Below are positions 2,903 through 43,928 of a stretch of DNA of 43,928 bases, one piece after another (the first letter of the stretch is position 1; each line of letters starts with the position of its first letter). The position numbers were made by a program, and so were the translations under genes. The notes under the pieces are model-generated. The model saw nothing but the letters and a program-made list of their open reading frames with translations. It searched no databases and had not been told where the DNA came from. The stretch is from an uncultured Methanosarcinales archaeon (GTDB lineage: Archaea; Nanobdellota; Nanobdellia; Woesearchaeales; GW2011-AR9): contig CAYJQD010000003.1 of NCBI GenBank assembly GCA_964372235.1, positions 1-43,928 of the forward strand, written 5' to 3'.

Positions 2903-3295
2903 ATGAACTGGGAAGAATATCACAATATACCCGAGTTGGTCCAAGAAGGATACTGGACTGATGTATCCTATAGACCAACGCTACTTCAAGGTAATGATCC
3001 AGTCCGAGGGTTTTTTGCTGTAGAGGGGCATAGAATCACGACCATTGGGCATGCTTCGTTCTCCGAACAGCAACCTCCAAAAACTCATCACTATCTCTTC
3101 GATGCGAGCGGAGCGATTTACAGCGAACATCGACCAAGAATAGTCAGAGTAAGAGGCGTCTGTGAAGAAATTGATCCAGATCTTAATGATCAATTCGTTG
3201 ATTTGGCCATGGATTTTCGGGCCATCTTTCCACAATATCAAAAATCGTTAGATTCTTGCATAAGGAACTTGAGTAAATTAACAGGAAAAAGATAG
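2903..3295 (+). CDS. hypothetical protein
   Basis: 130-aa ORF, 20 nt downstream of the preceding gene on the same strand. No motif recognised. Confidence 0.45.
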   Translation: MNWEEYHNIPELVQEGYWTDVSYRPTLLQGNDPVRGFFAVEGHRITTIGHASFSEQQPPKTHHYLFDASGAIYSEHRPRIVRVRGVCEEIDPDLNDQFVDLAMDFRAIFPQYQKSLDSCIRNLSKLTGKR

Positions 3296-3299
3296 AATC

Positions 3300-4154
3300 T
3301 TAATGGTTATTCTTAACTACATAAAACAATTCATTCGGAAATTCTAGGATAGTGTATTCCCATCCCAAACGTTTACATAACCATTCCATCCAGCTTCGTC
3401 TTGGTGCAGTCATCTCTTTGCCGCTTATGGTTTTGGTTGCAAAACTCACCACGATATATTTCGCAGGGATGCGTTTGAGCAATTCTTCTGTTTTTTTATG
3501 CCCTTTACCTTTGTCGATGACATCGGTCATCTTAAGGAGGAGGCACAGGTCCGCTTGTGGAAAGATAACCTTGAGAATATCAGCAACTATGGCTTTACCT
3601 TTGAAAGAAGAATTTTCTGTATGCAACAGTTCAAAATAGCTGTTGATCGATTTGATCTCTTCTTCATTGATATCATAGGCATGATAATTGCATTCTTTCA
3701 ATTTCATATAGAAAAATGAAAAAGGATTGATGCCGCAGCCGAGATCAAGGATGATTTTTGGTTTTTCGGTGATGGAAAATATCTTTGAGTATAACTTTTC
3801 GTAAATAGGTAAACGCTCTTGAGTAGAAGAATGGGTAGAGAGTATTTGTTGAAGAATTGCTGTCCGTTTAGAGAGCGGAGCTTTCAGCAATTCCCCTACT
3901 AATTCTTTTCGCTCTTTTGGATTATCACGGAATAATCCGTACACTCTGCGTAATTGGGAGCGGACCTGTTTGATCAGAGCAGCATACACTTTAGATTTAG
4001 GATGGAAGTTTTCTTGCAAGGCTTTAGCGATTTTAGGTTCTTGTTGCAGATATTTGTGGATATGTTCGGCTACAAAATCATCATCGATGCTTTGTAATTC
4101 TTTTTTTTTCTTGATTTCTTGAATTAAAATAATGATTTTTTCTTTATCGAGCAT
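3300..4154 (-). CDS. 16S rRNA (guanine1405-N7)-methyltransferase family (FmrO / ArmA-Rmt-like) SAM-dependent methyltransferase
   Basis: THSSTQERLP matches the family H-[AS]-S-T-x-ER motif. The SAM motif I ILDLGCGINPF is followed by YHAYDI. LLLKM, VSFATKTISGKE and the C-terminal ELFYVV line up with my memory of ArmA/RmtB (HSSTNER, LDFGCGFNP, YHAYDI, ISFPIKSLSGKEKG). Confidence 0.7.
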   Translation of the reverse strand: MLDKEKIIILIQEIKKKKELQSIDDDFVAEHIHKYLQQEPKIAKALQENFHPKSKVYAALIKQVRSQLRRVYGLFRDNPKERKELVGELLKAPLSKRTAILQQILSTHSSTQERLPIYEKLYSKIFSITEKPKIILDLGCGINPFSFFYMKLKECNYHAYDINEEEIKSINSYFELLHTENSSFKGKAIVADILKVIFPQADLCLLLKMTDVIDKGKGHKKTEELLKRIPAKYIVVSFATKTISGKEMTAPRRSWMEWLCKRLGWEYTILEFPNELFYVVKNNH

Positions 4155-13000: not shown

Positions 13001-13228
13001 AGCCTTAGGGGTCGCTCCCGCTTCTCCCACCAAGGCATCACTTCGATCAAACCACGCTCTTCCTGCTCGGGCTTCTTTGCTTCCGAAAAGGAATTGCCAG
13101 ATCTTACATCCTAGCTTACATTCTTCAACAGGTTCATCTGCGTAAGGATCTGTTTCCTGGGCAAAGGCGAAGATGGAACTACACAACATGAATAATACAA
13201 AGATCGTGGTTAATTTTGCTGCTTTCAT
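10097..13228 (-). CDS. large secreted protein with Sel1/Hcp-like Cys-bracketed repeats, a coiled-coil stretch and a Cys-rich C-terminal domain
   Basis: Signal peptide MKAAKLTTIFVLFMLCSSIFAFA. Sel1-like repeats at about 12410..12703 (CVAAGNIHYKNGEYDKS.., CLNVGTHYAKGNGVQQDQKTALQFFNKGC). Lys/Glu/Ala-rich heptad-like region at about 10960..11330. The ATG at 13228 overlaps the upstream TGA (ATGA). Confidence 0.7.
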   Translation of the reverse strand: MKAAKLTTIFVLFMLCSSIFAFAQETDPYADEPVEECKLGCKIWQFLFGSKEARAGRAWFDRSDALVGEAGATPKAEDEKLLIDAGAKKQRDGTYLITVGADKTFFRFQNGKWQWASEKEKNANTWSDAGKNPWTVESAHPLAKVNELSSKLGGIPSDSAPTPAASTMTPEQQALNQKYVEAKEKGDLGVLTNLCTDYSKACVAAGNIHYKNGEYDKSLPLQQQACAAGDKTGCLNVGTHYAKGNGVQQDQKTALQFFNKGCALGDARACGNVQSVEDVFAEAGFAGKGPGSENYKAREEAYKKLIGKDDYKGAPEQNGLLLNALKEGTVTVPFKSGVKAGSQAETDRVKGILESSLGASYADLEKSVGKVKSVYERPGAGVYVISGLGGEVIVDQKADEDGVITAKRFESSTSNKIVERYVVVNGQIVATQKEAGGVVKVGESSYTLPKGKILTNADTLGELKEGIQLPGKEGEPSGILKLNDGVFTAINYEEETMQRINSKTKESTNLKGDYYRKGVSGCKTDGGCFVETGGEVTLNIDGKAQSYLVDYEYNKPFGADRTLQQKELFDPGTGRKNGIVLVDGKGETNAIITKSGKKTEQGEVIYQLQDAKTGTTIEAKKVGDDWRTVTSPTSPKLQDAKTKGETVAKNLADTQRKLEEAKTKEENLKSEYATAKLQGNKEEEAKVSQLLATAQAERNTLENKAGKLGEELSKINADITKEEQAAKEAEDKLTNTLNSKENKEALKELETEEVLATIDVAIQSIYSITNNFKSYPAISNLLFGEADFYKDWRSKWDKAFAPLLASNWFPSAICENNALHWQDIEPEGKAVIKTTSGTYQAVASIQMERSPEASPILCHKNPDEESDELFICDSRQVCVDDTFCYADQDRDNEPDSDEPLKGYFYKVTWAVSSPQDEAFTPLVDENGVAVSFNVFLYPGAVPMYNLNGNIASPIQLQNGASDRDAIIKYSTNVYDQACIRWNQAPVSINIAGRDGVAAGYGAIEDVCFNVVTSDIGKVNWERSGQSGASVSVSSGQVTKNSDW

Positions 13229-16200
13229 ATCACATCCTCGCCGACTGAGTCGCAATAGTTTAATCCGCCTTGTTTGAAATCTTCTACCACCGTGGTGACG
13301 AAACCAACAATCTGTTCCAGAGTGCCAAAGATCTCCCAGATGTAATTAGCATAGGTACAACCACCTGAAGCAGTATTGCTCGTAGCACATATGATACCGC
13401 AAGTGACCACCGTTACAGTGTGAAGTATTGCAAATGGATCTGCTAACGCTCTCGATAATCCACCAATAACCTCATCCCAGAACTGAGAAAATGGAATCAA
13501 ATACCATAATTCTCCTACTACATATTTACATACCAGTAGATCTTCTAATTCTTCACACATACTTACAGTTGCTAATCCGGAACGTACTTCATTTTCTAAA
13601 CAGGCAATCTTACGACATTTGATCTGCCTAAACTTATCAAGATTCTTGATAATGCCTGGGATACATAATCCTGCAAAAGAGAGGAACAGATTATCTCGTA
13701 TGTCTCTTGGATGAGAATAGTTATCTTCTCCAGGATTGTAGCCTTTAGCAAGAGGATCGCCGGGCGCTTTTAATCTTTCTACTTTATACAATTCTAAGAT
13801 AAATGCCTGCCATTGGCTGTACCAACCTAAGGAACCGCCACTTTGTGGTCGGCACGTTAACACTTCAAGGATAACATCAAATATTTCTCCGCCAGATTTT
13901 GCGCCGGTGGTTCCACTATGGAATCCGAAACAAGCAGCAATCCTCTGCGCTTCTCCCCCGTAAGGATTAGCTTTTAATGCTTCAGTTCCGGTCTTGGCAG
14001 GGCCTTCAAAAATTTCCACTATCTTCATAATTATATTGTATATCTGTATCAGATAATCCAGCCACTTCAACACCTCTGCCATCACACCTATAACATCCCA
14101 GGCTGCATTGATATCATCCCTTGCTTCCTGGATGACTTGATCCAAATTCTCATCCTGTGCGCCAAGTGTAGAAAATCCAAACGGCACAACAACGGTAACT
14201 TGCTGCACTTCTGCTGCTCTGACTGCATTCTTGCCTACCTGTGAGAATATTTTGAAAGTACATACATATTCAACTTCCTGTTTGACAAATTCAGTTTCTT
14301 CTTTCTGACCGATCTGGAACATACTGCGTCCATCAAACGGTTCAAATTCAATAATGACATTTGGACTAGGAGCATAATCTCCGACAGCAGATACCCCACC
14401 ATACAATATTGCTCTGCTAATGACTGGCGCACTTGCTGCAGTTTCTCCTTCCTCTACTTCTGGAACAGCACAATTCACTAATTCGATATCCAATGCGCGA
14501 ACATCATTTACATCAGCACCTAACGCGATCTTAAATGGCAGCCTAGTATAGGTCAACTGGGTGGTGTCCAAATCGATAAAGGCGCCTGCTCCGCCGAGAG
14601 GAGTAACTTTGCGCACTTCCCAGAAATCGGGATTCTCTTCTGTAGTCAAACCTAATAAATCGATAGTGATAGTCGCTTCTTCATTGCTACTACGGAATCT
14701 CTTGACATTCTTCGGTTCGTTTTCTGGCGCAGGCCAGCTGACTGCATCATTGCCGGCAGTGTCCTGCACGCGAACGTCAACTTCTAAACCTGTTTCAGGA
14801 CCGCTCTTGATCGGATCAGTTTCTAAAGCGCATTCCCATCGTCCTTCTGCGCGAGTACAATCCTCTTCAGTAAAGATAACCCAGCCGTCTTCATCGATAA
14901 AGTCATTCGCAGGATATACATTTTCAGCGTCTAATAACAAATCTTGTACATTCACTAAGACGCGCAAGCCACTCGCCTCAGAAACTCTCAATACCAACTT
15001 AAATCGATCATTGCTCTGGAAATAATTCTTATCACCAATTTCAGAAGTTCCAAACACTTCTAAAGACTCGACCTTTGGACCGGTGTTATCTACGACAAAT
15101 TCAGATTCTGCAGCAAGGCCTTCATTGCCGACATTATCTTGGAAACGGGATAAACCGAAGGTCAACACCCCTTCATTAACTTCTTCATCAACATCCCAAT
15201 AACATTCTAAAACGCCAGCATCCTCTACACATTCGTTTGGTTCTGCCAGATTGCTTAACCCAAATCCAGCTAAATTTGCACGGACGCCATCTTTGCTGAT
15301 CCCTGCTCCCTGATCCTCAGCCTGTAAAATAATTGTGTTCTCACCACTTTTCAGATAACTTTTCCCTTCAAACTGTTTAACGGTGCCAAAGAACTTGATG
15401 CTTGGAGGATTATTATCGACGACGAAGGTTGAGGACAAGCTTTTTTCCGCGACATTTCCTTTTTCATCCGTAACTTTGACTAATACAGTTACTGTTCCAG
15501 CCGGATTAACCTTCACATTACTCCAGGTACAATGCCAAAGATCATCTACATCCGCATCAGCTTCACAGGTTGCTTGATCTCCGTCAAGATCAGCTTGTTG
15601 CGAAAATCCTTGCACGGTCGGCACGCTCTTCTCTACTACATCAACTTGTATATCAGTGGAGGAAGCGAACTGTCCGATAAATTGTCCATACTTCGTAAAG
15701 TTAAGATTATTCCCAATTAATGGCTTGACAAAATCAGCAAAGAATGATACAGAGGGGCTAAAAGAGACATGACCTAAATTATCTTCAGCACGGATCTTTA
15801 ATCTCTTGGTACCTTCGCCGCTCATGCTGGCTTGTAAAATTCCTTCATATCCTCCGTCACCCAAATAACTGAACGTCTCTTTTCCATCAGGAAGATCTAT
15901 GGTCTGCAGAGCTGTCCCTGTATCGCCATCAATAATGTCAATCTTCTTCAAGCCGGCAGAAGGAACTCCGCTCTTTTTGTCATTGACGGTGAAATCAAGC
16001 TTTACTTTACCTTCCTTCCCCTGGCTCACTTTTCCTGGAGAAAAGAAGATCTGCGGAGCGGATCCATCTGCTTTGATCACATCACCGGAAGAAGCGCTTT
16101 CTTGTTTCAAGGTTGCACTCAGGAAGGAATAAATGACTTGAAAGGCATATTCTCCTTCTTGTATTCCATCAGTTAGCGGACTAATATACTTACATAATAC

Positions 16201-16494
16201 TCCAAGCGTACTTGGAGAACAGGATGTAAACGAAGCCTGATTGTCGCCGATTTTGATTTTCACATCTTCCGGCTTGACGCTAGTATTGCTAGTCCCTGCA
16301 CCCGAAATAAGTGCTTCAACGGTCCAGACGTCGCCTTGTGCATCGATATGCTGCTCAATCCCTGCTTCTCCTTCATTCTTAGTTATCTGTACAGAGGCAG
16401 CCAAAGCACTCGCAGAATAGACAGGCATGCTCAGCACTAACATAACCATAAACAATGCTGCCAGGTTCCAGATGCTCTTTGTTTTCGGTTTCAT
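13225..16494 (-). CDS. large secreted, beta-rich (adhesin/Ig-like by composition) protein with Cys-rich hydrophobic C-terminal region
   Basis: Signal peptide MKPKTKSIWNLAALFMVMLVLSMPVYSASALA. The long middle part is rich in Gly, Asp, Val, Thr and Ser. The last ~330 aa hold many Cys and amphipathic or hydrophobic helices. Its start lies 2 nt after the upstream stop. Confidence 0.7.
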   Translation of the reverse strand: MKPKTKSIWNLAALFMVMLVLSMPVYSASALAASVQITKNEGEAGIEQHIDAQGDVWTVEALISGAGTSNTSVKPEDVKIKIGDNQASFTSCSPSTLGVLCKYISPLTDGIQEGEYAFQVIYSFLSATLKQESASSGDVIKADGSAPQIFFSPGKVSQGKEGKVKLDFTVNDKKSGVPSAGLKKIDIIDGDTGTALQTIDLPDGKETFSYLGDGGYEGILQASMSGEGTKRLKIRAEDNLGHVSFSPSVSFFADFVKPLIGNNLNFTKYGQFIGQFASSTDIQVDVVEKSVPTVQGFSQQADLDGDQATCEADADVDDLWHCTWSNVKVNPAGTVTVLVKVTDEKGNVAEKSLSSTFVVDNNPPSIKFFGTVKQFEGKSYLKSGENTIILQAEDQGAGISKDGVRANLAGFGLSNLAEPNECVEDAGVLECYWDVDEEVNEGVLTFGLSRFQDNVGNEGLAAESEFVVDNTGPKVESLEVFGTSEIGDKNYFQSNDRFKLVLRVSEASGLRVLVNVQDLLLDAENVYPANDFIDEDGWVIFTEEDCTRAEGRWECALETDPIKSGPETGLEVDVRVQDTAGNDAVSWPAPENEPKNVKRFRSSNEEATITIDLLGLTTEENPDFWEVRKVTPLGGAGAFIDLDTTQLTYTRLPFKIALGADVNDVRALDIELVNCAVPEVEEGETAASAPVISRAILYGGVSAVGDYAPSPNVIIEFEPFDGRSMFQIGQKEETEFVKQEVEYVCTFKIFSQVGKNAVRAAEVQQVTVVVPFGFSTLGAQDENLDQVIQEARDDINAAWDVIGVMAEVLKWLDYLIQIYNIIMKIVEIFEGPAKTGTEALKANPYGGEAQRIAACFGFHSGTTGAKSGGEIFDVILEVLTCRPQSGGSLGWYSQWQAFILELYKVERLKAPGDPLAKGYNPGEDNYSHPRDIRDNLFLSFAGLCIPGIIKNLDKFRQIKCRKIACLENEVRSGLATVSMCEELEDLLVCKYVVGELWYLIPFSQFWDEVIGGLSRALADPFAILHTVTVVTCGIICATSNTASGGCTYANYIWEIFGTLEQIVGFVTTVVEDFKQGGLNYCDSVGEDVI

Positions 16495-27950: not shown

Positions 27951-29468
27951 TTATCCTTTTACGTTCCCGATCGGTTTCAAGGCCACCACTGGACGAGTAA
28001 TACCTGCTTTATCCAGAGTATCAACAACAACGTCAATATCTTTGTATGCCGCGCCGGCTTCTTCCGCCAAGCCAGCCATAGTCACAGCATGAACGTAAAT
28101 ACCTTTCTTCTCCATATCCTTCTGCAATTTATCGCCGCGGATCTCTCGTTTGGCTTTAGCTCTGCTCATCGTTCTTCCTGCGCCATGCGCAGTAGAAGCA
28201 AAAGTTTCATCTGCACCATCGGTTCCAAGCAAAAGATACGATCCGGTTTCCATACTGCCACCAAGAATAACCGGCTGCCCAATCTTCGCATATTTTTTTG
28301 GTAGCTCTGAAGCTCGAGAAGGACCAAAAGCGCGAGTAGCTCCCTTTCTGTGCACGAGTAATTCTCGTTCTTTTCCATTCACTTTGTGCTTTTCTAATTT
28401 AGCGATGTTATGAGCAACATCATACACTAAGTTCATCTCCATCTCTTCTGCCGTCTTTCCGAAGACCTGGCTGAATACCTTTCTGATTTGATGAGTGATA
28501 ACTTGCCGATTCGCGAAAGCCATATTAGCGGCGCAAGCCATAGCTTTGTAGTAATCTTGTCCCTCCGGAGAATTAAACGGTGCACAAGCTAATTCCTTGT
28601 CCAGAATCTCAATGCCATACTTAGGCATGACTTCTAAAAATAATTTCAAGTAATCCGAACCAATCTGGTGTCCGAAACCGCGGCTGCCACAGTGTACCAT
28701 GATAACTATCTGCCCGGGCTTGGTGATGCCCATTACCTTTGCAGCATTATGGTCGTAAATATTTTCTTTCTTAACTTCCTGGATCTCAAGATAATGATTT
28801 CCTGAACCTAAGGTACCAAGCTGGTCAAAACCTCGCTTAGTGGCTTTGTCAGATACTTTACTAGGATCAGCCTGAGGTATTTTACCATGGCTTTCGATAT
28901 GATCTATATCTGAAGGCCAGGCGTAGCCTTTCTTTAAACACCATTGGGCACCATCTTTCATGACTTCCTTGAATTCTTCCTTGCTGACTTTGACAAAACC
29001 CTTGCAACCGACTCCGGCAGGGACTGCTTTGTAGAGTTCATCAACTAGCTGTTTGATGCGAGGTTTTACTTCATTGACAGTAAGGTTGGTGGTGATTAAT
29101 CTCATACCACAGTTGATATCGAAGCCGATACCGCCTGGAGAGATGACCCCGCCTTCCTTCGGATCAAACGCAGCAACTCCGCCAATTGGGAATCCGTAGC
29201 CCCACTTGTCTCTTTCTAACCCTTAGTTAGCAAAGATATGACCATCGGGCATGCAATATGCATATTTTTGGATTCCCGGCAGATTTGCCACGTTTGAAAT
29301 CTGGTTGTACACTCCCGCATCCATAGCATCAATAAGTTCTTTTGTGCCAATAATCCTGGCCGGAACACGCATTCCTTTTTTGAAGGAAGCAGGTAATTCC
29401 CAGGTAGTGTCATTTACCTTTTTTAATTCCGGTGGAGGACCAATCGGCTGACCTTCTTGCTCTTCCAT
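27951..29468 (-). CDS. rtcB: RNA-splicing ligase RtcB, single reading frame interrupted by a 33-nt insertion carrying an in-frame TAA
   Basis: ORF 29223..29468 (..AYCMPDGH) and ORF 27951..29105 are in the same frame. The stretch between them translates as WGYGFPIGGVAAFDPKEGGVISPGGIGFDINCG. Removing 29205..29237 restores the family motif PD-x-H-W-GYGFPIGG. Confidence 0.8.
29205..29237 (-). other. 33-nt in-frame hairpin insertion with a TAA stop in its loop
   Basis: The RNA reads AUCUUUGCUAACUAAGGGUUAGAAAGAGACAAG. Stems UCUUU/AAAGA and CUAAC/GUUAG are separated by one bulged G. The loop is UAAGG, and its first three nucleotides are the stop codon (29223..29225). Confidence 0.85.
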
Positions 29469-29501: not shown

Positions 29502-30131
29502 TTAAAGCTTTTCCTTGTTAACAGTGATTTGGGTAGAAGCCATTGGTAAGTACGAAGCAAGTGCTTCTTCCAATTTTTGCTTTTTCTTGGGATGAAGAAA
29601 ACCAACTTCTTGTTGGTAGTTTAAGATATTTTCTTTTCCGCAAATAGTCAACCGCCAAATAGTCCTATTTTTCTTCTTAGCCAGCTGCGAAGGGATACCT
29701 AACTTAAGGAGCTCTTCCTTAACCTGAAGAATTCCGCGTTCATTACAACATTCTAAACCGATTAATCGGCTTTTTCTGGGTTGATTTTCAACCCATCCTT
29801 CACAATCAAAAAAAGCTCGTAACCAGGATTTTACTTGTTCTTTTGATAATTCTGGCATTTTCCATTCGTAAGAATAGTAGGAGAAATCTTTGGTTAAAAT
29901 ATAGTAAATCTCTTTATTTTGAAGTATGCTTCTGCCTTCGATGATACGGGGTTCGAGACCAAATACAGCTTTAAACTTTTGCTGAAAATCCTTCAACAAA
30001 ATATCATTTGTATTTCTAAAACCAATGTAGTAATATTTGTGCTTTTGATGTTCAGGATTCTTAATGACATAACCATCACCACAGAGATAACCATGAATTG
30101 CAGCAAGATTTTCCTCAAATTTCATTTTCAT
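29502..30131 (-). CDS. free-standing LAGLIDADG homing endonuclease (two-motif type)
   Basis: LAAIHGYLCGDGYV and LRAFFDCEGWV are two LAGLIDADG motifs about 95 aa apart. The likely ATG is at 30131 (MKMKFEEN). The gene ends 33 nt upstream of the rtcB ATG. Confidence 0.7.
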   Translation of the reverse strand: MKMKFEENLAAIHGYLCGDGYVIKNPEHQKHKYYYIGFRNTNDILLKDFQQKFKAVFGLEPRIIEGRSILQNKEIYYILTKDFSYYSYEWKMPELSKEQVKSWLRAFFDCEGWVENQPRKSRLIGLECCNERGILQVKEELLKLGIPSQLAKKKNRTIWRLTICGKENILNYQQEVGFLHPKKKQKLEEALASYLPMASTQITVNKEKL

Positions 30132-30325: not shown

Positions 30326-30883
30326 CTAATCTGATTTCAAATAGCTTCTAACCAGTTCTACTGCTTCTTCAACTGTACCGTTATTAGTAATAAAAATGTA
30401 AGGTATTCCTGATTTTTGCGCTTGTTCGTCCCAACCTTTGCTTTCTTTCAGCCGTCGTTCTATATTGTCCTGCATTTCTCCTCGCCGTTCCATGCGGGCA
30501 CGTAAAATATGTTCTTCTGGACTGCAGATGTAGAACGATTTGATATTATCCTCACTAACATGGTTGCGGAGCTCTTTCACCGCATGTGGAACTAGGATCA
30601 TGACGGAAGATAATGGAGATTTTAGCGCGGCATCGATCGATTCATAGGTGGTCCCATACCTGTTACCAGCAAACGAAACACCCCAAAGGAATGCATCCCA
30701 GCATTTTAACCAATCAAAATGAAGGTCAGTCACATAGTCGTATTCCCCAGGCAAGTCTGAAAGTCGGGAATTTCGCGTGGTTACGCTAGGTATCAAAGCG
30801 TACTGAGGATCTTGCAACAGCTCTTTGACCAGGGTAGTCTTCCCTACCCCTGAAAACCCGGTAAAAGTCACAATTTTTCCCAT
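30326..30883 (-). CDS. guanylate kinase-like P-loop kinase
   Basis: GFSGVGKTTL P-loop and SVTTRNSRLSDLPGEYDYV (the TTRxxRxxExxGxxYxF pattern of Gmk). Confidence 0.55.
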   Translation of the reverse strand: MGKIVTFTGFSGVGKTTLVKELLQDPQYALIPSVTTRNSRLSDLPGEYDYVTDLHFDWLKCWDAFLWGVSFAGNRYGTTYESIDAALKSPLSSVMILVPHAVKELRNHVSEDNIKSFYICSPEEHILRARMERRGEMQDNIERRLKESKGWDEQAQKSGIPYIFITNNGTVEEAVELVRSYLKSD

Positions 30884-30989: not shown

Positions 30990-31424
30990 ATGGCTAAAAA
31001 AGCAGCAAAAAAGGCAGTAAAAAGAAAAGTTCCCTCTAAAAAAGAAGAGGAAAATGACGATGAAGAATTAGAAGTATATCCGGCTGAAGAACAAGGTATT
31101 TTGCCTGATGAAACTTCAGAAGAGCACGAGCTAGCCATGGATCTCGGAGATGAGGATGAGGATATCTATACCGAAGAAGGTCGCAAGAAACTAGAAGAAG
31201 ATGATGAGATTGAACCCTGGGAAGAAGGAGTTATGGAAGGAGCAGCTGGTTTAGGACAGCTGGGGAAAGACGCGCTTACCGGGAAGCCTTTGATGGATGC
31301 TGACGAAGTGATTGAGATGGAACTTGATGGAAAGTTGTACCGCTTTGTTTCTACCAAGAATGCTGAGAAATTCCGCGAGAAGTGGATGAAGCAGAAAAGT
31401 AAAGGGAAAGGAAAGAAGGATTAG
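30990..31424 (+). CDS. acidic hypothetical protein with Lys-rich ends
   Basis: 144-aa ORF with a Lys-rich N-terminus, a Glu/Asp-rich middle and a conserved-looking C-terminal DGKLYRFVSTKNAEKF. Confidence 0.45.
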   Translation: MAKKAAKKAVKRKVPSKKEEENDDEELEVYPAEEQGILPDETSEEHELAMDLGDEDEDIYTEEGRKKLEEDDEIEPWEEGVMEGAAGLGQLGKDALTGKPLMDADEVIEMELDGKLYRFVSTKNAEKFREKWMKQKSKGKGKKD

Positions 31425-35930: not shown

Positions 35931-38900
35931 TTAGCTACTGCTGCTCGAGGTGGGAAGCCTACCTTTGTCGATCCACTGATTGATAGGTTGATCAACCAAT
36001 GATTCGTCTATCAAATCCAGATCTATCTTTTCCAACATTTCCTGTTCCACATATTCAACCACTTGATCAGAAATTTTCCAGCCAGTAGTTCCCTTGGCTT
36101 TCTGAATATTAGTTATTTGGGAGCTAGCTTGCATACCTATAATTTTTCCTTTAGATTTATCGTATTGAAATTCAAACCCGAATGCTCTATTGGGCAGGTC
36201 AGCGATAAGATAATTATCATATTGTCCATCATATACTAAATCACCTTTCTCTCCTCCGATTATAGTTCCAAGAGCCTGCCTATGATGAGTTTTATCACTT
36301 TCAGTGAGGAAGACTACTTGGACCCTTCCATCGTCGTGTATGTAGGCAATCGCCTTCCCACCATAGATATCTTCTCCAAGGAATTCTAACTTATTTTGAA
36401 ACACTTCATCAACATTCTGTGGGCCGACACTATCATAAAGATTACTCACTGTTCCCTCGTATCCTTGAACAGTTGTAACTACTTTGGGCTCTGGAAGATC
36501 GGCAGGAGGCAATTCAAACACTATTTCTTCTGAAGGTAGATTCAGGGGTAAACAAGGCCCAGCTATAGATAGGCCTGCTATAGCTCCTCCAACCGCAGCT
36601 CTACCGACGGAGCAAGATTCAAGTTTAACTTCCGGTAATACTATCTGGCCTTCTTCTATCAACCTAGCCCTGCTTTGATCTAATTGCGCAATAATTTCAG
36701 CATCGTCAACTTCCTTATCAAACCATAACGTTCTTTTCTGCTTCCATTTTCCTTCTTCAAAGTAATAATCCTTACCGGCTATTTCAAACGCATTATCACC
36801 CTTTTGAATTACTGCCGCTTGAGCTTTAGGCACTCCTGCTTTTTCCCTTGCTTTGTTTAGAATTGCTACAGTTACCTCATCAGCTTCTTTATCTCCAAAT
36901 AGTGTGTCGACTAGACCTTCTCGCGGCTGCACCCATTTTCCTGTTTTGGTATCAAATATGTATTTACCAGTCGAAGTTTCAAAGAATCGTTCAGCATGCG
37001 TTCCCGGCATTTCTTTCGCTACTTTCTCAGGATCTATTCCTAACTTATACATCAACTGCAGCCGGCTATCTTCATTTCTGATAATATTCAGCACGTCAGG
37101 GGTAGCTTGATAACCAGCAGCGTGCATTGCTCTCTGCAGTTCAGCTATGTCAGCATTCTCAACTACGTCGGCAGAGCGAGGCAGCTCTTGTTTAAAGCGT
37201 ACTGCTTTCGCTTCAGGAATCTTGGTCGATACGAGTAACGGGTCAATCCCTTGCTCATACATTCTTCTTAGTTGGTGCTCTCCTGGCCTTATGTAAACCA
37301 ACACCTCCGGAGAAATATCGTAGCCAGTAGCATCCAAAGCGATCAATAATTCTTTTTGAGTCGCGCTCTGGACTGCTTCTGCAGCAGGAGTCAGATCACG
37401 TTTAAACGCTAGGGCGTTCTCTGCTCCAGAACGTGGAGCGGTCATGACATTATCAACCCATGCTTGTAACAATTCTTGTTTTTGTGCAGGTGTTCTTCCT
37501 TCCTTGAAACTCCAATCGGCGACATCGACGAACAAGACATCACCAGCTTGGTATTGTTTTCCCCCAAGGTGATGCGGTTCGGTCAGGACCATAGCCTGAA
37601 GATCATGCGGATTCCAGCCGGCATCTATCGCTCTGGCCAGATCCTGCGTAAATAGCTCAATCTTTTCTGGAGTAAAGTATTGAACTACTTCTTCATCGGT
37701 GAGATCAAAGAAGTGTCTCCCTTTTATTTTATCAGAAACTAAATATGGAACTCCGTCGACTTTGTATATCCCGTAATATTGAGGACAAGGCACCAGCTTG
37801 CATGCTTCCCTGGCTTTCTCAAATTCGATAAAAAGCCCATCCACATTTGACTCTAAATTTCCGCGCAATATTCGCTCACCGGGCAAGGCTTTAGCAGTCT
37901 TGAAAGCCAGATCATCTCCTACCCCAGGAAGGTCAGCTTCGTATACCAAGCCGACAGTTCCTTCTCCAAGTTTGTTGGTAAAGGCTACCTCAGCATCTTG
38001 CACCTGCACGGTAGGATGACGTTGTACTATCTTCTCTAAGTTGATCTTCTGTTGAGCATAGCCGCCCTTTACTGTGGCAATCTCCCGTGAGATCTGAGAA
38101 GGCGTTTCTACTTTTCTTTCCAAAAGAAGAGGTTCTGATTCAAAAAAACGTGGTTCTTTAATTCTTACGCCGGAAATATCCTCCGTTTTCCCAACAATCT
38201 CATCAAGAGTAGAATCACCTAATTCTTCTGCTGGCAATGGTTCTGCTGCTCTCGCCGCTGAACAAGAAGCTAATCCGTAAATGGCGCCGCCGGCAACTGC
38301 ACAAGGCTCTATTACATCTGATCTAACCCTTGGCCCTGATTCCCGTGGAATTGGCACATCTCCTAAACGAGAATCAAGATTTAGCCAGGGCTGGTCAGGA
38401 TTGATGCCATACTTCTCAAAAATTTGCCGTTTTATCTTATCAAATTCTGGACCGGTTTTTCCTCCGGTCACAGTATATATTTCAGTTAGCGCTTCAGCAC
38501 GAGCTTGTCCAAAAGAAGGTGCATTTACGTCTTTTGCCTGAATATATTTAATTTCATTTTCAGTAAGCCCTTTGTAGAACACATTTCCAGGATCTTCTGC
38601 CCAGGAGACACCTCTACCCACTGGCTTAGTAAACAGGGGAATTTCTTCATCTAACAACGTAGGGTTTATTCCTGCTAGGATTTTTTCTACTTGATCTTGG
38701 TGAGCAGCTTCAACATACAAGACAGTATTATCCGTTCGCCGGGCAAATGCCGCCTTATTTCTAGATGTCTTTATCTTAAATGGGATCTGCTGCTCGGTCA
38801 ATTCTCTTCCAACTTTTTCCAATATCACCTGAGAGGAATCAAAATTCTTAGAGTTTATGTAAAATCTAATTCTATTATTATGCGGCAGGTCTTCTACACT

Positions 38901-41900
38901 CTGAATGGCTATCCAACCTCCCTGTATTCCTCCTGGAGAAATATCGACTTTATCTGGATCTATTTTATTCTGCAGCCCAATAGAAGCATGAAGCTGGTTT
39001 ACTTTGCCTTCTTCAATAATATTTGGAGATGTTTTGTGATTATAACTGTCGTAGAAATGTTTGAAGATTTCTTCATCAGATTTTCCTTGCAGGTTAGCTA
39101 AATTTTTATTTTCAAAAATATCTTTCACATTTTGCGGCTTAGGAGCAGCCGTGACGACTTCACCTTCTCTTTGTAAAGTATCAAAATTCAGATCTGTTTT
39201 TCTGAAACGTACCGTGTCTCCGTTAGCATACGTGAGGCGAAAAAATTCAGAATCCTCTCCGGCGTATTTGCCTGCATAAGGCCTGCCACTAGTTCCAGCA
39301 ATCCTTATCTGATCTCCTTCTTTGATAATACTGCTTTGATCTAATCTATCGATACGCAAGGTATTTGTCTCTGGTTTACTGCCGAGCAGTCCAAAGAATC
39401 TCTCTTTCTCACCCGTTTGAATAGTTATCAATTGCTCATCAGCTTTCAGATATTTACCACCGTACGAATTTCCACTTTTGGAACGAACGCGGAAAGATTG
39501 TCCTTCTTCGAGATCGGCGATGGCTCTTTGATTCGTCTCAACTGGCGGCGCAGTTATTTTTTCAGGAGCTGCTCCCGGTCTGGCGGCTGGCGCTCCCGGA
39601 CACGGCGCTAGACCATAAATCGCTCCGCCGGCAACGGCGCAAGAGTCAACCACATCAGAAACGCCTCTGCCGGTCCTTTCTCTTTTGGCCTTTTGAAAGG
39701 TAGTAAAGTCTATGTCAAACCCGCCGCCGGTAAGTGCTTCTCTTACTTTTTCATCATAAACCTGCCGGAGTAAGGATGGTTCGCCCGGTATTGCAAATCC
39801 TGCGTCTAGAACCTTTGCTTCCAATTTTCCTTCAGGCGTTTTGGTAAGGATGATGTTGCCCCAATGGAAATCTCCAATTTCTATGTTTTCAGCTACCAAA
39901 TCATCAGCAAGCGTATCAACAGCTTCAACTACATCATCGAATTGGCCTTGCGCTTCTGCTCTCAAGAGGATTGCTTCTCCTTCAACGTCATTGGCTAATC
40001 TGTACTCTTCTAACTGTTGCGGCGTTAATCTTTCACGTATAGTCTGAGCTAAAGTCTGACCTTCAATTTTTTCAGCAATGTAATAAGTATCTTCAGCCTG
40101 ATAAACTCGCGGAGCTGCACCGCGATCTGCGAGGCGATTCAAAAAGTCAGCTTGTTCAGGGAACGTATTAGCAGCACCTTCTAAAGACCTATCAATATTT
40201 CTAACTTTTATAATTGCCGGTTTTTCGACATTAGGTAAATTGACCCTTACCGCTTCTGGAATTTCTAGAACCACACCTTCACCACCGCTACCAAGAAGTA
40301 ATTTTTCCTTATTGACTAATTTTTCCAAATCTGATTCAGGTATTCGAGAGCCAGGATGTGTATCTAATACATCGACAATTTCATTCCAGTCGTCCTGCCC
40401 CTGAACTCGCGGGGGAAGATTTACTTGTTTTTGAGGAGCACTGATTGGTACTTCGGCGGTAGCGATATCTGGGACTCCTGGTTTAGTGATGACTTGAACA
40501 CCTTCTTTTCTAGTCTTTAGATCTTTAGTAGTCTGCTCTACAATTTCTTCAAGATCAATTTTTTCCGGAGCTTCTTCGACCTTAGCCGATGGAGTTTCAG
40601 CGACAGTTCTTGCGCACGGAGCTAATCCATAGATCGCTGCAGCGGCTAAACTACATGGATTAACTGCTTCAGTTTTTGCTCCATTCAATACCTCATCAGT
40701 TTTTCTTCCAGGACTATTGATCAAATCTTCTGCTTTCCTAACTTCTCCCAAGAATTCTTCTTTAGTAACTAACTTTCCATCAATGCGAACTCCTTCAAAA
40801 CGTACTCCGTCGATATCTATTGTCTCAATTGGAACGTCGTCAAGATTGTATCGTAATCTTCCGTCAGGAGCTAACTCCCAGCGCGCTCCTAATGGTTCAA
40901 GCTGAGTACGTAAAGAATCGAGTTCGTCTGGAATGATTTGTGGACCGGCGACTCCCACTGCTTCTAATCTTCTTGCTTTGACGTCATTGGCTGCAACATA
41001 TTCACTATTAGCAAGATCTTCTAAAAGCATCTCTTCTAGTTCTGCTTCTGCTCTTGCCTCAGTAGTGTCTATCCTCCGTAAAATTTCATTTCCTTCTTCC
41101 ACTTCTATCCGCAATTGAGGAGGAGCATCTTCAGGAACTTCAAAACGCAGTCCTGTTCCTTCTGGTTCGACGCGCACAGCAGGATTACTTGCCAACTCAT
41201 CAAGTTTAGCAACTCCCTCTGCGCCAACTGCATCATACACCTCATCTCCCTCCCTTGAAACTTCTGCTTGTTGCAATCTCTCACCTAATGCAGATTTGCT
41301 TCGCTCAAACTTCCTATTAAGATACGCATCATCTACTTTCTGAGCTGCAACTTCCAAATTTTCCTTAGCCGCATCTAACTTGGTTCTGGAAAGAATTGCT
41401 TCCGGAGTATCTCCCACTAGTTGTGCATTTTTGCTCGCATCCGCAAATTCATCTGCCACTCGTCTAAATTCATCCTCTGCTCTCAAGACTTCTTCTCCAG
41501 GACCATCACCAAGTACTTTTCCAAACGTAGAATCCCAAGCTCTTCTTACCACGTCCTTATTCGGTCCAGCGATATTTGATACCCGTAATAAATCATCTAA
41601 CTCGTCAATGTTCTCAGTTGATTGCACTAGTGCTTCCTGAGCATCAGAAATTTTAACTAAGGATTGTCCTTCTGCAACAGTATCGCCGCTGGCGCGTGCT
41701 GCTGCTAACTCCCGTTGCGCTTGGTTAAGATTTTGAGTCTGAGTTGCAATATTATCAATTTCAACATTTCTAGCCTTGGCTATATCACGATCAAATTTAC
41801 CAAGAGGAGTATTTATTACTCTCTTGAATTTCTGATATTTGCTGGCTTCCCAACCCGCTATGATTTCCGCTTGAAGCGCTTCTTTAGCGGCATCAAACGC

Positions 41901-43928
41901 TTTCCTGGCTTCTACCGCCGCTTCTGCCGTATCAGCTGCTCGTTCAGCTGCTCGGGCTGCCACATATGCTTCTCTAGTTCCTTTTGAAGCGTAGCGATAA
42001 GCATCAAGGACGGTGTCTCCTTTTTCTAACGCTTTGGCTAACTTTGCAATTTTTCCTAATTTTACAGCTCCGCTAGCTCCTCCGCTAAGGAATTCAGTAG
42101 CTAGATCTACAGGAAGAAGAACATTATAAAATTCGCTAATAGCAGTATCTCTGAATATCTGTTCGGTTTCACTGCTATAAGTAACACCTACCCTCTCTAA
42201 ACCGCCCGCAATTGTTCTTCCAACCGTTTCTCCAGTATAAACAGCGATAACTTCTCCTAACACATTTTGATTTAAACTGTCTACTGTACGCTGTACACTT
42301 TTAGCTCCTGCACAATCGGGACAGACTGCCAATGCTTCTTTATATTTTGCTGCTGCTTCGCCGGCAAGCTTATCCCTATTAAGGCTCCGTGCATTCTCGG
42401 CATCGCGAACGATAACGTTAAATTCAAGCTCCCGCCGCTCTGCTTCATATTGTTCTTTACGCTGTTGAGTCAAAGCAGTTTTCGCCAGTATATCATCCGA
42501 AGCTTCTAAAAATTTCTTATCTTCTTCAGAAAATACGGACCTGGTCAAATCAAATTCTAACAAAGCCGCAGCAGGCTCGTCTGCTACACCGATTTGAAAA
42601 TCCGATGTAGAGGAAACCACGCTGCCGTCAGCAGCCCTATCTATCCCGGCACGAGCATCAGCAAAGGCCTGGCCAGCAGAAAGACCTCGTTTTTCGTAAT
42701 CTCTCAATTTCAAACGCAAGCTATGCAATTGATCAATTTGCCTTTCCTGTTCATCGAGAGCTCGTTTATCCAGCTCATTTCTGACATCTTCAATTCCAAA
42801 AGCTTCTGCACCTGCTTTAGAACCGCTATCTGCAATAAATGAAAAAGAATGCCCTGCTAACGCTACCGAATCTGCAACAGCATCAAGAAAGTTACCTGAC
42901 GTACCTATATTTTTCCAGGCATTAGCAACAGCTCTTCCTGCTCCTAACTCTTCTTCCTCTTGTAGAAATCTTTTTTTCAGCTTAGCTTGTTCTAACTCTT
43001 TCTCACGTTCTTCTAATACTCTCTTAGCATGACTAGTCTGAGCGATCCTGGCTTTCTTCAACTTCGCCAAATCAGGATCAAGTAAGGCTTCTGGAACATT
43101 TTCTGACCCTTGCAGCTTTTGTGCTAGTTCAGGATTATCTGCTTCAATCTCTTGCAAGATCGCTCCGGCTTCATTACCATAACCGTAATCATACAACAGC
43201 GCTACTTGATCTAATGTTTCATCTCTTTGCTGACGAACTGCTCGATCCACAATATTCTTGGCATGATCATCAGATACTACTTTTTGTCCGGCTAAAACAG
43301 AAACATCAATGGTTTCTAACACCACCACGTTTCCTTTCTCATCTTTACCCAGTTTGACCACTTCTTTTATGCCACCCTCCGCAGCTATGCTGGGCCCAGA
43401 AAGAATGTTTTCAACTTCTTTATATTTTCCAGCTAAGAGAGCAACTTCTGCCGCTACATCATCTTTCCCTTCCATCCGATATTTTTCAATAAGAGCTTGG
43501 TTTTGTGAGTCCAATCCCTTTAAATCTTTATCAAGTTGCTCAAGCTCGCGTTGGGTTTCCACAGTGGCAGCGGCATCAGCGCGGAAATCTTCCCGAAGAG
43601 TATATACTTCAGGATCTAATTTGTTATCAAAAAAACCACGAGGAGCATGCCTATTTATGAGATGGATAACATAATCGGGATCGGAATTAAATCTATCTTC
43701 ATCAATAGCAAGAAAGATAGATTTTTTTCCGCCTCCAACTAACCATTCTTTTTCTAACTTAGACCAAATTTCGTTTCTTAATTGGTTGCGCCGACCCCTT
43801 TGTGCTTCCAGAGTGTGTTTTAAATCAACTTCTCTTTTTTTGCCGTTATCTATTTTTCTCTTAGTGTCTTCAATTTCTCTTTTGTCCGTCGCAACGATAC
43901 CTTTAGATCTGAATAGCAAACGTCTGAA
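35931..43928 (-). CDS. giant multidomain protein (over 2,660 aa). The N-terminus lies beyond the window. It has a coiled-coil arm, two APH/ChoK-like kinase folds and several internal repeats.
   Basis: The frame is open to the window edge; the track start is only a TTG. aa ~1-1088 are helical and rich in Ala, Glu, Lys and Arg. Kinase-like fold 1 has LGSGGEGVV, AIIKV, IGDFHWGNII and VLDAG (about 39780..40300). Kinase-like fold 2 has LGEGTVGLVY, AFKTAK, NPHDLQAMV and FVDVADW (about 37500..37980). Four Cys-bracketed modules mark the boundaries. Confidence 0.85.
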   Translation of the reverse strand, partial: FRRLLFRSKGIVATDKREIEDTKRKIDNGKKREVDLKHTLEAQRGRRNQLRNEIWSKLEKEWLVGGGKKSIFLAIDEDRFNSDPDYVIHLINRHAPRGFFDNKLDPEVYTLREDFRADAAATVETQRELEQLDKDLKGLDSQNQALIEKYRMEGKDDVAAEVALLAGKYKEVENILSGPSIAAEGGIKEVVKLGKDEKGNVVVLETIDVSVLAGQKVVSDDHAKNIVDRAVRQQRDETLDQVALLYDYGYGNEAGAILQEIEADNPELAQKLQGSENVPEALLDPDLAKLKKARIAQTSHAKRVLEEREKELEQAKLKKRFLQEEEELGAGRAVANAWKNIGTSGNFLDAVADSVALAGHSFSFIADSGSKAGAEAFGIEDVRNELDKRALDEQERQIDQLHSLRLKLRDYEKRGLSAGQAFADARAGIDRAADGSVVSSTSDFQIGVADEPAAALLEFDLTRSVFSEEDKKFLEASDDILAKTALTQQRKEQYEAERRELEFNVIVRDAENARSLNRDKLAGEAAAKYKEALAVCPDCAGAKSVQRTVDSLNQNVLGEVIAVYTGETVGRTIAGGLERVGVTYSSETEQIFRDTAISEFYNVLLPVDLATEFLSGGASGAVKLGKIAKLAKALEKGDTVLDAYRYASKGTREAYVAARAAERAADTAEAAVEARKAFDAAKEALQAEIIAGWEASKYQKFKRVINTPLGKFDRDIAKARNVEIDNIATQTQNLNQAQRELAAARASGDTVAEGQSLVKISDAQEALVQSTENIDELDDLLRVSNIAGPNKDVVRRAWDSTFGKVLGDGPGEEVLRAEDEFRRVADEFADASKNAQLVGDTPEAILSRTKLDAAKENLEVAAQKVDDAYLNRKFERSKSALGERLQQAEVSREGDEVYDAVGAEGVAKLDELASNPAVRVEPEGTGLRFEVPEDAPPQLRIEVEEGNEILRRIDTTEARAEAELEEMLLEDLANSEYVAANDVKARRLEAVGVAGPQIIPDELDSLRTQLEPLGARWELAPDGRLRYNLDDVPIETIDIDGVRFEGVRIDGKLVTKEEFLGEVRKAEDLINSPGRKTDEVLNGAKTEAVNPCSLAAAAIYGLAPCARTVAETPSAKVEEAPEKIDLEEIVEQTTKDLKTRKEGVQVITKPGVPDIATAEVPISAPQKQVNLPPRVQGQDDWNEIVDVLDTHPGSRIPESDLEKLVNKEKLLLGSGGEGVVLEIPEAVRVNLPNVEKPAIIKVRNIDRSLEGAANTFPEQADFLNRLADRGAAPRVYQAEDTYYIAEKIEGQTLAQTIRERLTPQQLEEYRLANDVEGEAILLRAEAQGQFDDVVEAVDTLADDLVAENIEIGDFHWGNIILTKTPEGKLEAKVLDAGFAIPGEPSLLRQVYDEKVREALTGGGFDIDFTTFQKAKRERTGRGVSDVVDSCAVAGGAIYGLAPCPGAPAARPGAAPEKITAPPVETNQRAIADLEEGQSFRVRSKSGNSYGGKYLKADEQLITIQTGEKERFFGLLGSKPETNTLRIDRLDQSSIIKEGDQIRIAGTSGRPYAGKYAGEDSEFFRLTYANGDTVRFRKTDLNFDTLQREGEVVTAAPKPQNVKDIFENKNLANLQGKSDEEIFKHFYDSYNHKTSPNIIEEGKVNQLHASIGLQNKIDPDKVDISPGGIQGGWIAIQSVEDLPHNNRIRFYINSKNFDSSQVILEKVGRELTEQQIPFKIKTSRNKAAFARRTDNTVLYVEAAHQDQVEKILAGINPTLLDEEIPLFTKPVGRGVSWAEDPGNVFYKGLTENEIKYIQAKDVNAPSFGQARAEALTEIYTVTGGKTGPEFDKIKRQIFEKYGINPDQPWLNLDSRLGDVPIPRESGPRVRSDVIEPCAVAGGAIYGLASCSAARAAEPLPAEELGDSTLDEIVGKTEDISGVRIKEPRFFESEPLLLERKVETPSQISREIATVKGGYAQQKINLEKIVQRHPTVQVQDAEVAFTNKLGEGTVGLVYEADLPGVGDDLAFKTAKALPGERILRGNLESNVDGLFIEFEKAREACKLVPCPQYYGIYKVDGVPYLVSDKIKGRHFFDLTDEEVVQYFTPEKIELFTQDLARAIDAGWNPHDLQAMVLTEPHHLGGKQYQAGDVLFVDVADWSFKEGRTPAQKQELLQAWVDNVMTAPRSGAENALAFKRDLTPAAEAVQSATQKELLIALDATGYDISPEVLVYIRPGEHQLRRMYEQGIDPLLVSTKIPEAKAVRFKQELPRSADVVENADIAELQRAMHAAGYQATPDVLNIIRNEDSRLQLMYKLGIDPEKVAKEMPGTHAERFFETSTGKYIFDTKTGKWVQPREGLVDTLFGDKEADEVTVAILNKAREKAGVPKAQAAVIQKGDNAFEIAGKDYYFEEGKWKQKRTLWFDKEVDDAEIIAQLDQSRARLIEEGQIVLPEVKLESCSVGRAAVGGAIAGLSIAGPCLPLNLPSEEIVFELPPADLPEPKVVTTVQGYEGTVSNLYDSVGPQNVDEVFQNKLEFLGEDIYGGKAIAYIHDDGRVQVVFLTESDKTHHRQALGTIIGGEKGDLVYDGQYDNYLIADLPNRAFGFEFQYDKSKGKIIGMQASSQITNIQKAKGTTGWKISDQVVEYVEQEMLEKIDLDLIDESLVDQPINQWIDKGRLPTSSSSS
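36552..36614 (-). repeat. Cys-bracketed Gly/Ala-rich module, copy 4 (longer, diverged)
   Basis: EVKLES-CSVGRAAVGGAIAGLSIAGPC-LPLN. Confidence 0.7.
38262..38303 (-). repeat. Cys-bracketed Gly/Ala-rich module, copy 3
   Basis: VRSDVIEP-CAVAGGAIYGLASC-SAAR. Confidence 0.85.
39600..39641 (-). repeat. Cys-bracketed Gly/Ala-rich module, copy 2
   Basis: GVSDVVDS-CAVAGGAIYGLAPC-PGAP. Confidence 0.85.
40614..40655 (-). repeat. Cys-bracketed Gly/Ala-rich module, copy 1 (protein-level repeat)
   Basis: TEAVNP-CSLAAAAIYGLAPC-ARTV. Confidence 0.85.

Follow-up and report, generated by a model that had tools for sequence, protein, structure and literature searches.

The rtcB gene of an uncultured archaeon, which codes for the archaeal splicing ligase, is interrupted by 33 nucleotides (nt) that very probably constitute an archaeal bulge-helix-bulge (BHB) intron of its pre-mRNA, i.e. 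an intron of the splicing-endonuclease/RtcB type. The gene is located on the minus strand (27951..29468) of contig CAYJQD010000003.1 (assembly GCA_964372235.1), whose whole stretch of 43,928 nt was analyzed and is termed the window; the affiliation of the contig is Woesearchaeota/DPANN. A first-pass annotation of this DNA had proposed that the insert is a mini-intron removed at the RNA level, RtcB thus joining its own mRNA, and the comparison of related genes lends strong support to this proposal. Here, WIN denotes the window's own rtcB locus, and L001, L014 and similar labels denote the rtcB/endonuclease loci of relatives.

The interrupted gene occupies a single minus-strand frame that extends from the ATG at 29468 to the TAA at 27951-27953 and reads ...YCMPDGH IFAN*GLERDK WGYGFPIGGVAAFD.... 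As the first-pass annotation had stated and translation confirms, the two RtcB open reading frames (ORFs) share this frame and are split by exactly the 11 codons IFAN*GLERDK. These surplus codons correspond precisely to 29237..29205 and contain an in-frame TAA (29223..29225, minus strand), which falls into the loop of a predicted hairpin. In silico removal of the 33 nt yields a protein of 494 residues that covers the Pfam RtcB profile completely (positions 1-426 of 426, E 8e-175) and aligns over its full length with RtcB of Pyrococcus horikoshii (E 7e-162), in which MPDGHQGYGFPIGG is contiguous. Three further statements of the annotation hold as well: the RtcB motif is uninterrupted in normal proteins, as seen in the P. 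horikoshii enzyme and in 75 uninterrupted relatives; TAA serves as an ordinary stop for other genes of this DNA; and no start codon is present between the stop and a methionine whose use would remove the conserved core, the first in-frame start past the TAA being ATG 29105, from which translation would drop GYGFPIGG...DINCG. The long ORFs of the window end with TAA in 16 cases, TAG in 8 and TGA in 8. Since all three codons terminate long ORFs, the standard code applies, the TAA of the insert is a real stop and an altered genetic code is ruled out. Neither a further stop nor a frameshift occurs in the 417 codons that follow this TAA.

The gene can be divided into three parts on the minus strand. 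Exon 1 (29238..29468) encodes Met1 to His77 and ends with ...CCC GAU GGU CAU, its junction being derived from the alignment to the 75 uninterrupted relatives that read PDGHWGYGFPIGG. The 33-nt mini-intron (29205..29237; AUCUUUGCUAACUAAGGGUUAGAAAGAGACAAG) is inserted in phase 0, and exon 2 (27951..29204) encodes Trp78 to Gly494 and the TAA stop and is delimited by the Pfam and P. horikoshii matches. A repeat search detected no copies of the hairpin elsewhere in the window, which excludes a dispersed repeat within this stretch, and the window gave no match with Rfam at gathering thresholds or with ARAGORN. Two other classes of intervening elements were rejected. A group I or group II self-splicing intron does not fit an element of only 33 nt, and no Rfam ribozyme core was present in the window at gathering thresholds. 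Inteins comprise about 500 residues and are removed at the protein level, which does not agree with a 33-nt element containing a stop codon.

The inner part of the insert forms the hairpin UCUUU-g-CUAAC / GUUAG-AAAGA with the loop UAAGG (29211..29236), whose pairs reach probabilities of 0.97-0.99 in the thermodynamic ensemble. The 10-bp stem with one bulged G and a loop opening with the stop codon, as previously described, is thus present. The fold energy of the region is by itself unremarkable (z = -1.74), and the significance of the structure consequently comes from the comparison with relatives and not from the hairpin alone. Together with the adjoining exon nucleotides, a BHB can be drawn as GGUC[AU|A]-hairpin-GACA[AG|U], in which two 3-nt bulges on opposite strands flank a central helix of four positions. 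The 5' strand of this helix, GGUC (29240..29243), belongs to the Gly-His codons of exon 1 and pairs with GAC of the intronic 3' strand GACA (29207..29210) with a probability of 0.97; the placement of the 3' strand is backed by the register test and covariation analysis described below. The 5' bulge A-U|A (29237..29239) is unpaired in the minimum-energy fold and carries a predicted cut between 29238 and 29237, whereas the 3' bulge A-G|U (29204..29206), with a predicted cut between 29205 and 29204, follows from the four-position helix and the rule of cutting after the second nucleotide. This rule was described for the cbf5 intron, where the exon borders lie between the second and third nucleotide of each bulge (PMC2738675). 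Applied here, it gives CAU|...|UGG, which is identical to the junction derived from the protein alignment alone and is the sole junction that restores His-Trp. The view of the first-pass annotation that no canonical BHB could be drawn is therefore superseded. Its description as a relaxed endonuclease-type mini-intron stands with respect to the type and not with respect to 'relaxed', as the motif is near-canonical, with two 3-nt bulges and a four-position helix that includes one G.A in WIN and is perfect in relatives.

A survey of related rtcB genes showed that the insert is variable, a question for which the first-pass annotation had suggested such an alignment. One genome per species was scanned with the spliced protein, resulting in an unbiased sample of 80 loci with 65-97% identity, all of them from Woesearchaeota/Nanoarchaeota-type DPANN genomes. 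The gene is uninterrupted in 75 of these loci, which read PDGHWGYGFPIGG or a close variant, and inserts of 30-33 nt are found within the same few codons in the remaining five. L001, whose protein is 92% identical, contains the same 33-nt insert with three differences, and inserts of 30 nt (L025) and 33 nt (L060) occupy the position of the WIN insert. Two inserts are located 7 nt downstream, one of 30 nt (L044) and one of 32 nt that shifts the frame (L055), the remaining gene being intact in the new frame. No insert is present in the closest relative, L014 (97% protein identity). In L014, just 20 nt of the contig (JBBSWK010000160.1) precede the intron site, which may reflect an assembly break from a population that is mixed in its intron and endonuclease states.

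A larger set of 161 loci combined the unbiased genome sample with metagenome loci that were chosen via the LAGLIDADG protein discussed below. It contains 48 mini-inserts that differ from one another and measure 15-35 nt; they occupy four positions within 9 nt of the PDxH-x-GYG codons. Site A directly follows the His codon, a second position lies 2 nt beyond it, site B comes after the first base of the Tyr codon and site C after the complete Tyr codon. The WIN intron belongs to site A, and homologous site-A introns occur in L025, L060, L082-L084 and others. The lengths of 27 inserts are not multiples of three, and those at site B split a codon. Among the 21 in-frame inserts, 20 carry an in-frame stop, compared with 10.5 expected from shuffles. 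Accordingly, with 27 frame-shifting and 20 stop-bearing elements, 47 of the 48 inserts block translation unless they are removed. The smallest introns have a length of 15 nt (GCGAAAGC followed by GGCU and AG), barely more than the motif itself.

Additional inserts were noticed at a second hot spot about 90 nt downstream, in the PGG-I-GFDINCG codons. They measure 12 nt in L060 and L096 (at ~3300), 32 nt in L088 (at ~1335) and ~21 nt in L117, L128 and L140. Their BHB-like pairing was recognized by eye only, for L088 and the L117 type and more tentatively for the 12-nt elements, and lies outside the systematic test. Inteins of ~1.5 kb are present at DIN|C in L048 and L106 and likely in L145. The window's own gene contains neither second-hot-spot inserts nor DIN|C inteins.

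The proposed structure was evaluated with two statistical tests. For the register test, the junctions were fixed from the protein alignment only, and a four-position helix ending 2 nt before each junction as well as an inner helix whose start lies 1 nt past the 5' junction were required; introns with at least three of the four central-helix pairs and at least three inner pairs were counted as passing. In this canonical BHB register, 44 of the 48 distinct introns pass, while 0.72 would be expected from shuffled introns. The covariation analysis used junction-anchored columns of 40 sequences, with shuffles and partners slid by 1-3 columns as controls. Standard pairs fill 91.7% of the cells (55% in shuffles, 35-51% for slid partners), all nine of the nine tested pairs change on both sides in a compensatory manner, and the covariation score amounts to 0.986 in comparison to 0.26 for shuffles and at most 0.27 for slid partners. 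The first five pairs of the inner hairpin covary and are paired in 96.5% of cases across these 40 sequences. Covariation also connects exon codons with intron nucleotides, as illustrated by the combinations GGGG/CCCU, AAGG/CCUU, CAGG/CCUG, GGUC/GAC, GGCC/GGC, GGCU/GGCC and GGUU/GACC.

Removal of the intron would start from the BHB that the sequence comparison demonstrates, in which GGUC of exon 1 pairs with GACA of the intron, the hairpin serves as the inner helix, and the bulges AU|A and AG|U flank the central helix. The tRNA-splicing endonuclease EndA would then cut past the second nucleotide of each bulge, and the RtcB ligase would join ...GGU CAU to UGG GGC..., resulting in the predicted junction ...CCCGAUGGUCAU|UGGGGCUACGG... 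and restoring the PDGH-WGYG motif. An unspliced mRNA would end at the TAA. Because splicing would need RtcB and unspliced mRNA would stop at the TAA, new RtcB would be produced only if RtcB is already present, which amounts to an autocatalytic loop. From what is established for BHB introns, we infer that EndA performs the cutting and RtcB the sealing, and hence that RtcB synthesis depends on existing RtcB. A tRNA gene located directly upstream of rtcB in L001 (2798..2904, plus strand; Rfam, 41 bits) has a long variable region and is interrupted by 22 nt on the 3' side of the anticodon, which fits the use of tRNA-type splicing in this lineage. DPANN lineages, with one Woesearchaeote among the genomes surveyed, were reported to encode EndA (PMC5829648). 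The intron-bearing tRNA and the reported DPANN EndA together make the presence of the needed enzymes plausible in the lineage. The L001 tRNA was missed by ARAGORN, which reported none in any of 60 loci with an estimated total of roughly 400 kb; since it missed a tRNA found with Rfam, its negatives are uninformative for these genomes.

Several points weigh against an intron in the window. The central helix of WIN consists of three Watson-Crick pairs and one G.A, the outer exon-exon helix is weak, with a single U.G followed by an internal loop before CCC/GGG (an HBh'-like form), and the minimum-energy fold deviates slightly from the drawn BHB on the 3' side. Pfam annotation of the window's ORFs revealed no EndA, a result that applies to the window. 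A second, uninterrupted rtcB may exist elsewhere in the genome. In addition, when the first 142 residues of the spliced product were compared with a protein database, only short fragments with at most 84% identity were returned, which informs neither way on transcripts. Concerning the structure, the fourth position of the central helix, G.A in WIN, is G-C in L082 (a perfect GGUC/GACC) and G.U in L093, and L060 exhibits a compensated pair in GGCC/GGCA. L082, L093 and nearly all introns of sites B and C have a perfect central helix, and the inner helix, with 10-11 bp and a probability of 0.98, is strong and covaries. A window-wide scan for BHB-like segments that would merge other ORFs produced 342 hits, mostly at ordinary gene boundaries, and is not discriminating; no other obviously split genes were apparent in the window from Pfam annotation of the remaining ORFs.

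The codons downstream of the stop allow for a judgment on whether the gene is functional. Between WIN and L001, both of which carry the intron, the DNA is 84% identical and the ratio of nonsynonymous (dN) to synonymous (dS) divergence is 0.03. For exon 2, dN is 0.042 and dS is 1.68, i.e. saturated, and these substitution patterns indicate strong purifying selection acting on exon 2 in both of these intron-bearing lineages. The intron itself has retained 30 of 33 nt despite the saturation of synonymous sites. This conservation bears directly on the suggestion, also made in the first-pass annotation, that rtcB is a pseudogene in which the 33 nt represent a dead mobile-element footprint or a repair scar. 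Decay of this kind could be read from the in-frame TAA without a usable restart before ATG 29105, from the mobile endonuclease gene that adjoins rtcB and from truncated rtcB fragments in some relatives. It is nevertheless very unlikely, as it is contradicted by the selection on exon 2, by the open 417 codons after the stop, by the preservation of the insert and by the dozens of inserts in otherwise intact rtcB genes, many of them frame-shifting, the 48 different sequences of which retain a splice-competent structure with compensatory changes.

Translational bypass, either by readthrough of the stop, resulting in RtcB with 11 additional residues, or by a ribosomal hop of the kind known from phage T4 gene 60, appears highly improbable. 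The WIN insert is in frame and its stop is located in a hairpin loop, and a stop in a hairpin loop is a feature of the T4 gene 60 bypass element. However, 27 of the 48 related inserts have lengths that are not divisible by three and lie beyond rescue by readthrough, site-B inserts split a codon, and the variation among inserts preserves RNA pairing and not peptide sequence. Furthermore, matched take-off and landing codons are absent (CAU before the gap, AAG before UGG), and the insert reaches its stop at the fifth codon, four codons past the last conserved codon. It is still less plausible that RtcB is made as an 81-residue N-terminal piece and a C-terminal piece that assemble after translation, similar to a Nanoarchaeum-like split gene. 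DPANN archaea are known to have split protein genes, and gene callers assign two ORFs to this locus. Yet, no start is present between the TAA and ATG 29105, and the second piece would lose WGYGFPIGG...GFDINCG, a stretch preserved throughout the relatives and in solved RtcB structures; moreover, the frame-shifting and codon-splitting inserts of relatives create no start codons. An assembly or sequencing artefact, for which the L014 contig starting 20 nt upstream of the site could be cited as a sign of assembly trouble or population heterogeneity, has next to no probability, given the same insert (three differences) in the independent L001 assembly from another project and about 50 independent contigs with related inserts that stem from many studies.

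While the first-pass annotation was right about the intron, it overlooked a LAGLIDADG gene that is located directly upstream of rtcB and is statistically tied to the introns. This free-standing endonuclease gene (29502..30125, minus strand) lies 33 nt upstream of the rtcB start codon and encodes a short form of 207 residues that matches Pfam LAGLIDADG_3. Profile comparison relates it to the homing-endonuclease domains of PI-PfuI and V-ATPase inteins. The protein is identical to a database protein, P0001, whose Logan contig ends before the intron. It belongs to a family of mostly ~285 residues, with short forms of ~200 residues, for which at least 396 database clusters exist under the name 'LAGLIDADG family homing endonuclease' or as hypothetical proteins. 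Among 84 family members, nearly all ORFs are intact, and in the motifs ...YLCGDGYV... and ...FFDCEGWV... the catalytic Asp of the former is present in 84 of 84 and Glu or Asp in the latter likewise in 84 of 84. The gene forms an insertion between the guanylate kinase gene (30326..30883 in the window) and rtcB in WIN as well as in L055; in L005, these two genes are direct neighbors with a spacing of about 50 nt. The endonuclease family members of L121 and L136 are not followed by rtcB. The next ORF of L121 resembles the window ORF 30990..31424, which encodes an acidic protein without a Pfam match.

In the unbiased sample, three of the four assessable loci with an intron possess the LAGLIDADG gene, whereas it is missing from all 66 loci without one (Fisher p = 7e-5, uncorrected for shared ancestry). 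L059 contains only a 29%-identical LAGLIDADG ORF at a distance of 1.3 kb. A metagenome scan with an alignment of four LAGLIDADG proteins provided another 80 loci, which were thus chosen by their endonuclease. Eight of their contigs have no room for a neighboring gene, and rtcB adjoins the endonuclease gene in 70 of the other 72. A mini-intron is present at the site in 47 of these 70 rtcB genes and absent in 20, with three not assessable. The diverged motif GYGACIGG characterizes 13 of the 20 intron-less genes, and no intron was seen in GYGACIGG loci.

Possible traces of DNA breaks and exchange are visible at several loci. Upstream of its endonuclease gene, L087 carries a truncated second copy of the rtcB 5' region (3212..3433) that ends exactly after the His codon (...GATGGTCAT|TGAAAA), and a truncated rtcB 5' copy in L090 (2090..2338) ends 5 nt further (...CATTGGGG|TTTAAT). 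L081 contains another truncated 5' copy upstream of the endonuclease gene (172..294), and in all three loci one or two unrelated ORFs lie between copy and endonuclease gene. Additionally, the alignment of WIN 27951..29468 with L001 3001..4515 is a mosaic. In this one pair, nt 6 to 305 are 92-98% identical, covering exon 1, the intron and ~40 nt beyond, whereas identity is ~80% elsewhere and the sequences upstream of the start are unrelated. The dS between WIN and L001 is 0.33 for exon 1 and 1.68 for exon 2. In exon 1, L001 lies closer to WIN than L002 or L003 by a factor of about 10; in exon 2, all three are equidistant from WIN. The truncated copies and the mosaic identity fit, without proving it, a scenario in which the DNA broke at the hot spot and recombination carried the intron over together with its flank.

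These observations led to a model in which the rtcB mini-introns of DPANN archaea are 'immunity scars' against the free-standing LAGLIDADG endonuclease, a proposal drawn from comparative sequence data to which about even odds are given. The likely DNA target of the endonuclease would be the uninterrupted sequence coding for PDGHWGYGFPIGG, and the chromosome would be protected by insertions that disrupt this sequence while remaining spliceable. Indirect hints at cleavage in this place are the four intron positions within 9 nt, the truncated rtcB copies ending at CAT| and 5 nt further, and the lack of introns in the GYGACIGG clade. A short insertion that folds with the neighboring codons into a BHB would survive, as the host's tRNA-splicing enzymes would remove it from the transcript. 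The endonuclease gene, exon 1 and the intron would then spread together by recombination, in a manner resembling collaborative homing. Against a link of this kind stand L001, whose intron is not accompanied by a LAGLIDADG gene, and the 20 loci with a LAGLIDADG gene and no intron at the site, including L106 with exact PDGHWGYGFPIGG. The missing correction of the statistics for shared ancestry counts against it as well, as does the integrity of the gene almost everywhere, which is also compatible with a domesticated host function.

Such a function is the core of a possible, if more tentative, explanation: the intron is real and spliced, and the LAGLIDADG protein, instead of being its selfish partner, is a domesticated factor, for example one that regulates rtcB or assists it by binding RNA or DNA, and has only been co-inherited with rtcB. 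Its reading frame and motifs are preserved in nearly all 84 loci, its position overlapping or adjoining the rtcB start resembles an operon, and it lies beside rtcB even in the clade without an intron at the site (the 13 GYGACIGG loci). However, its distribution is sporadic among close relatives and it is absent from all 66 of the 66 intron-less genomes with 65-92% identical RtcB, and it was inserted between guanylate kinase and rtcB, genes that adjoin in L005. The retained catalytic acidic residues, the truncated rtcB copies that end at the hot spot and the clustering of independent introns within 9 nt, as target disruption predicts, also argue against a domesticated factor.

In the literature found, up to 2025, archaeal pre-mRNA splicing via BHB motifs is cited only for cbf5 (PMC2738675, PMC5829648). 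No earlier description of rtcB introns, of a link between LAGLIDADG proteins and RtcB or of DPANN mRNA introns was found in this literature, the coverage of which is incomplete. The cbf5 intron of Crenarchaeota resembles that of rtcB in being short, in interrupting a protein-coding gene, in its BHB-like motif with borders between the second and third bulge nucleotides and in its lineage-specific presence and absence (PMC2738675); removal by EndA and a ligase, which would apply to rtcB as well, is known for cbf5. In contrast, the rtcB introns occur in DPANN/Woesearchaeota instead of Desulfurococcales/Sulfolobales, and the interrupted gene is the splicing ligase itself. Moreover, rtcB has many independent introns (four positions within 9 nt and a second hot spot) with lengths down to 12-15 nt and is associated with a homing-endonuclease gene. 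The cbf5 pre-mRNA intron is the subject of Watanabe 2002 and Yokobori 2009 (the latter PMC2738675). The rtcB introns would thus represent a second case of archaeal pre-mRNA BHB splicing beside cbf5, the single gene with confirmation so far, in another superphylum and with far greater diversity, comprising dozens of independent introns of 12-35 nt.

The BHB introns of archaeal tRNAs and rRNAs (hBHBh' and relaxed forms) share the motif and the inferred enzymes, and 12-35 nt is within the range of small tRNA introns. LAGLIDADG genes are often carried by rRNA BHB introns. Unlike these elements, the rtcB intron is located in an ORF, its exon pairing has to draw on codons that specify a catalytic motif, and the endonuclease is encoded upstream of the host gene and not within the intron. 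Collaborative homing, as described for the cyanophage psbA group I intron with F-CphI and for T4 mobE with the nrdB intron (PMC6083498, PMC2790892), offers a parallel in which an ORF-less intron interrupts the target of a free-standing endonuclease; similarities include the endonuclease beside the host gene, the co-inheritance of intron and endonuclease and, possibly, co-conversion of the flank, as hinted at by the WIN/L001 pair. The rtcB element differs in that it would be a protein-spliced BHB intron and not a ribozyme, and in that the nuclease is a LAGLIDADG protein of a cellular archaeon for which cleavage of the intron-less allele is only predicted. If the 'immunity scars' proposal is true, this would be the first collaborative-homing system based on a protein-spliced intron, and it would provide a concrete route for the origin of BHB introns. 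The association with the endonuclease, the clustering within 9 nt and the truncated copies suggest that BHB introns may originate and spread as spliceable disruptions of a nuclease target.

Two other systems invite comparison. The splicing of XBP1/HAC1 mRNA likewise involves a very short intron (26 nt in XBP1), stem-loops, a protein endonuclease, sealing by RtcB in animals and a changed protein product; it differs from the rtcB intron in the endonuclease (IRE1), the RNA motif, its role in a regulated stress response and a ligase that does not act on its own mRNA. In the archaeal case, the host gene would be the ligase that seals the splice, making RtcB production autocatalytic, an unusual regulatory arrangement. 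RtcB inteins (at DIN|C in L048 and L106, and the Pyrococcus RtcB intein) are likewise selfish elements in catalytic motifs of the same gene and contain LAGLIDADG_3-type nuclease domains, and they differ in their removal at the protein level and in their length of about 500 residues, as opposed to the 33-nt stop-bearing element of the window. For genome annotation, it is relevant that gene callers split or truncate these rtcB genes, with entries labeled 'partial' or given as two ORFs, and that rtcB may consequently be misscored as broken or missing in DPANN genomes.

Apart from the rtcB region, the window contains several large ORFs on the minus strand. One of more than 2662 residues (35931..43919) runs off the window end and includes a HopA1-effector-like domain, and two adjacent ORFs of about 1050-1090 residues (10097..16494) show weak Ig-like and Sel1 matches. 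These large ORFs possibly encode surface or host-interaction proteins of this DPANN archaeon.

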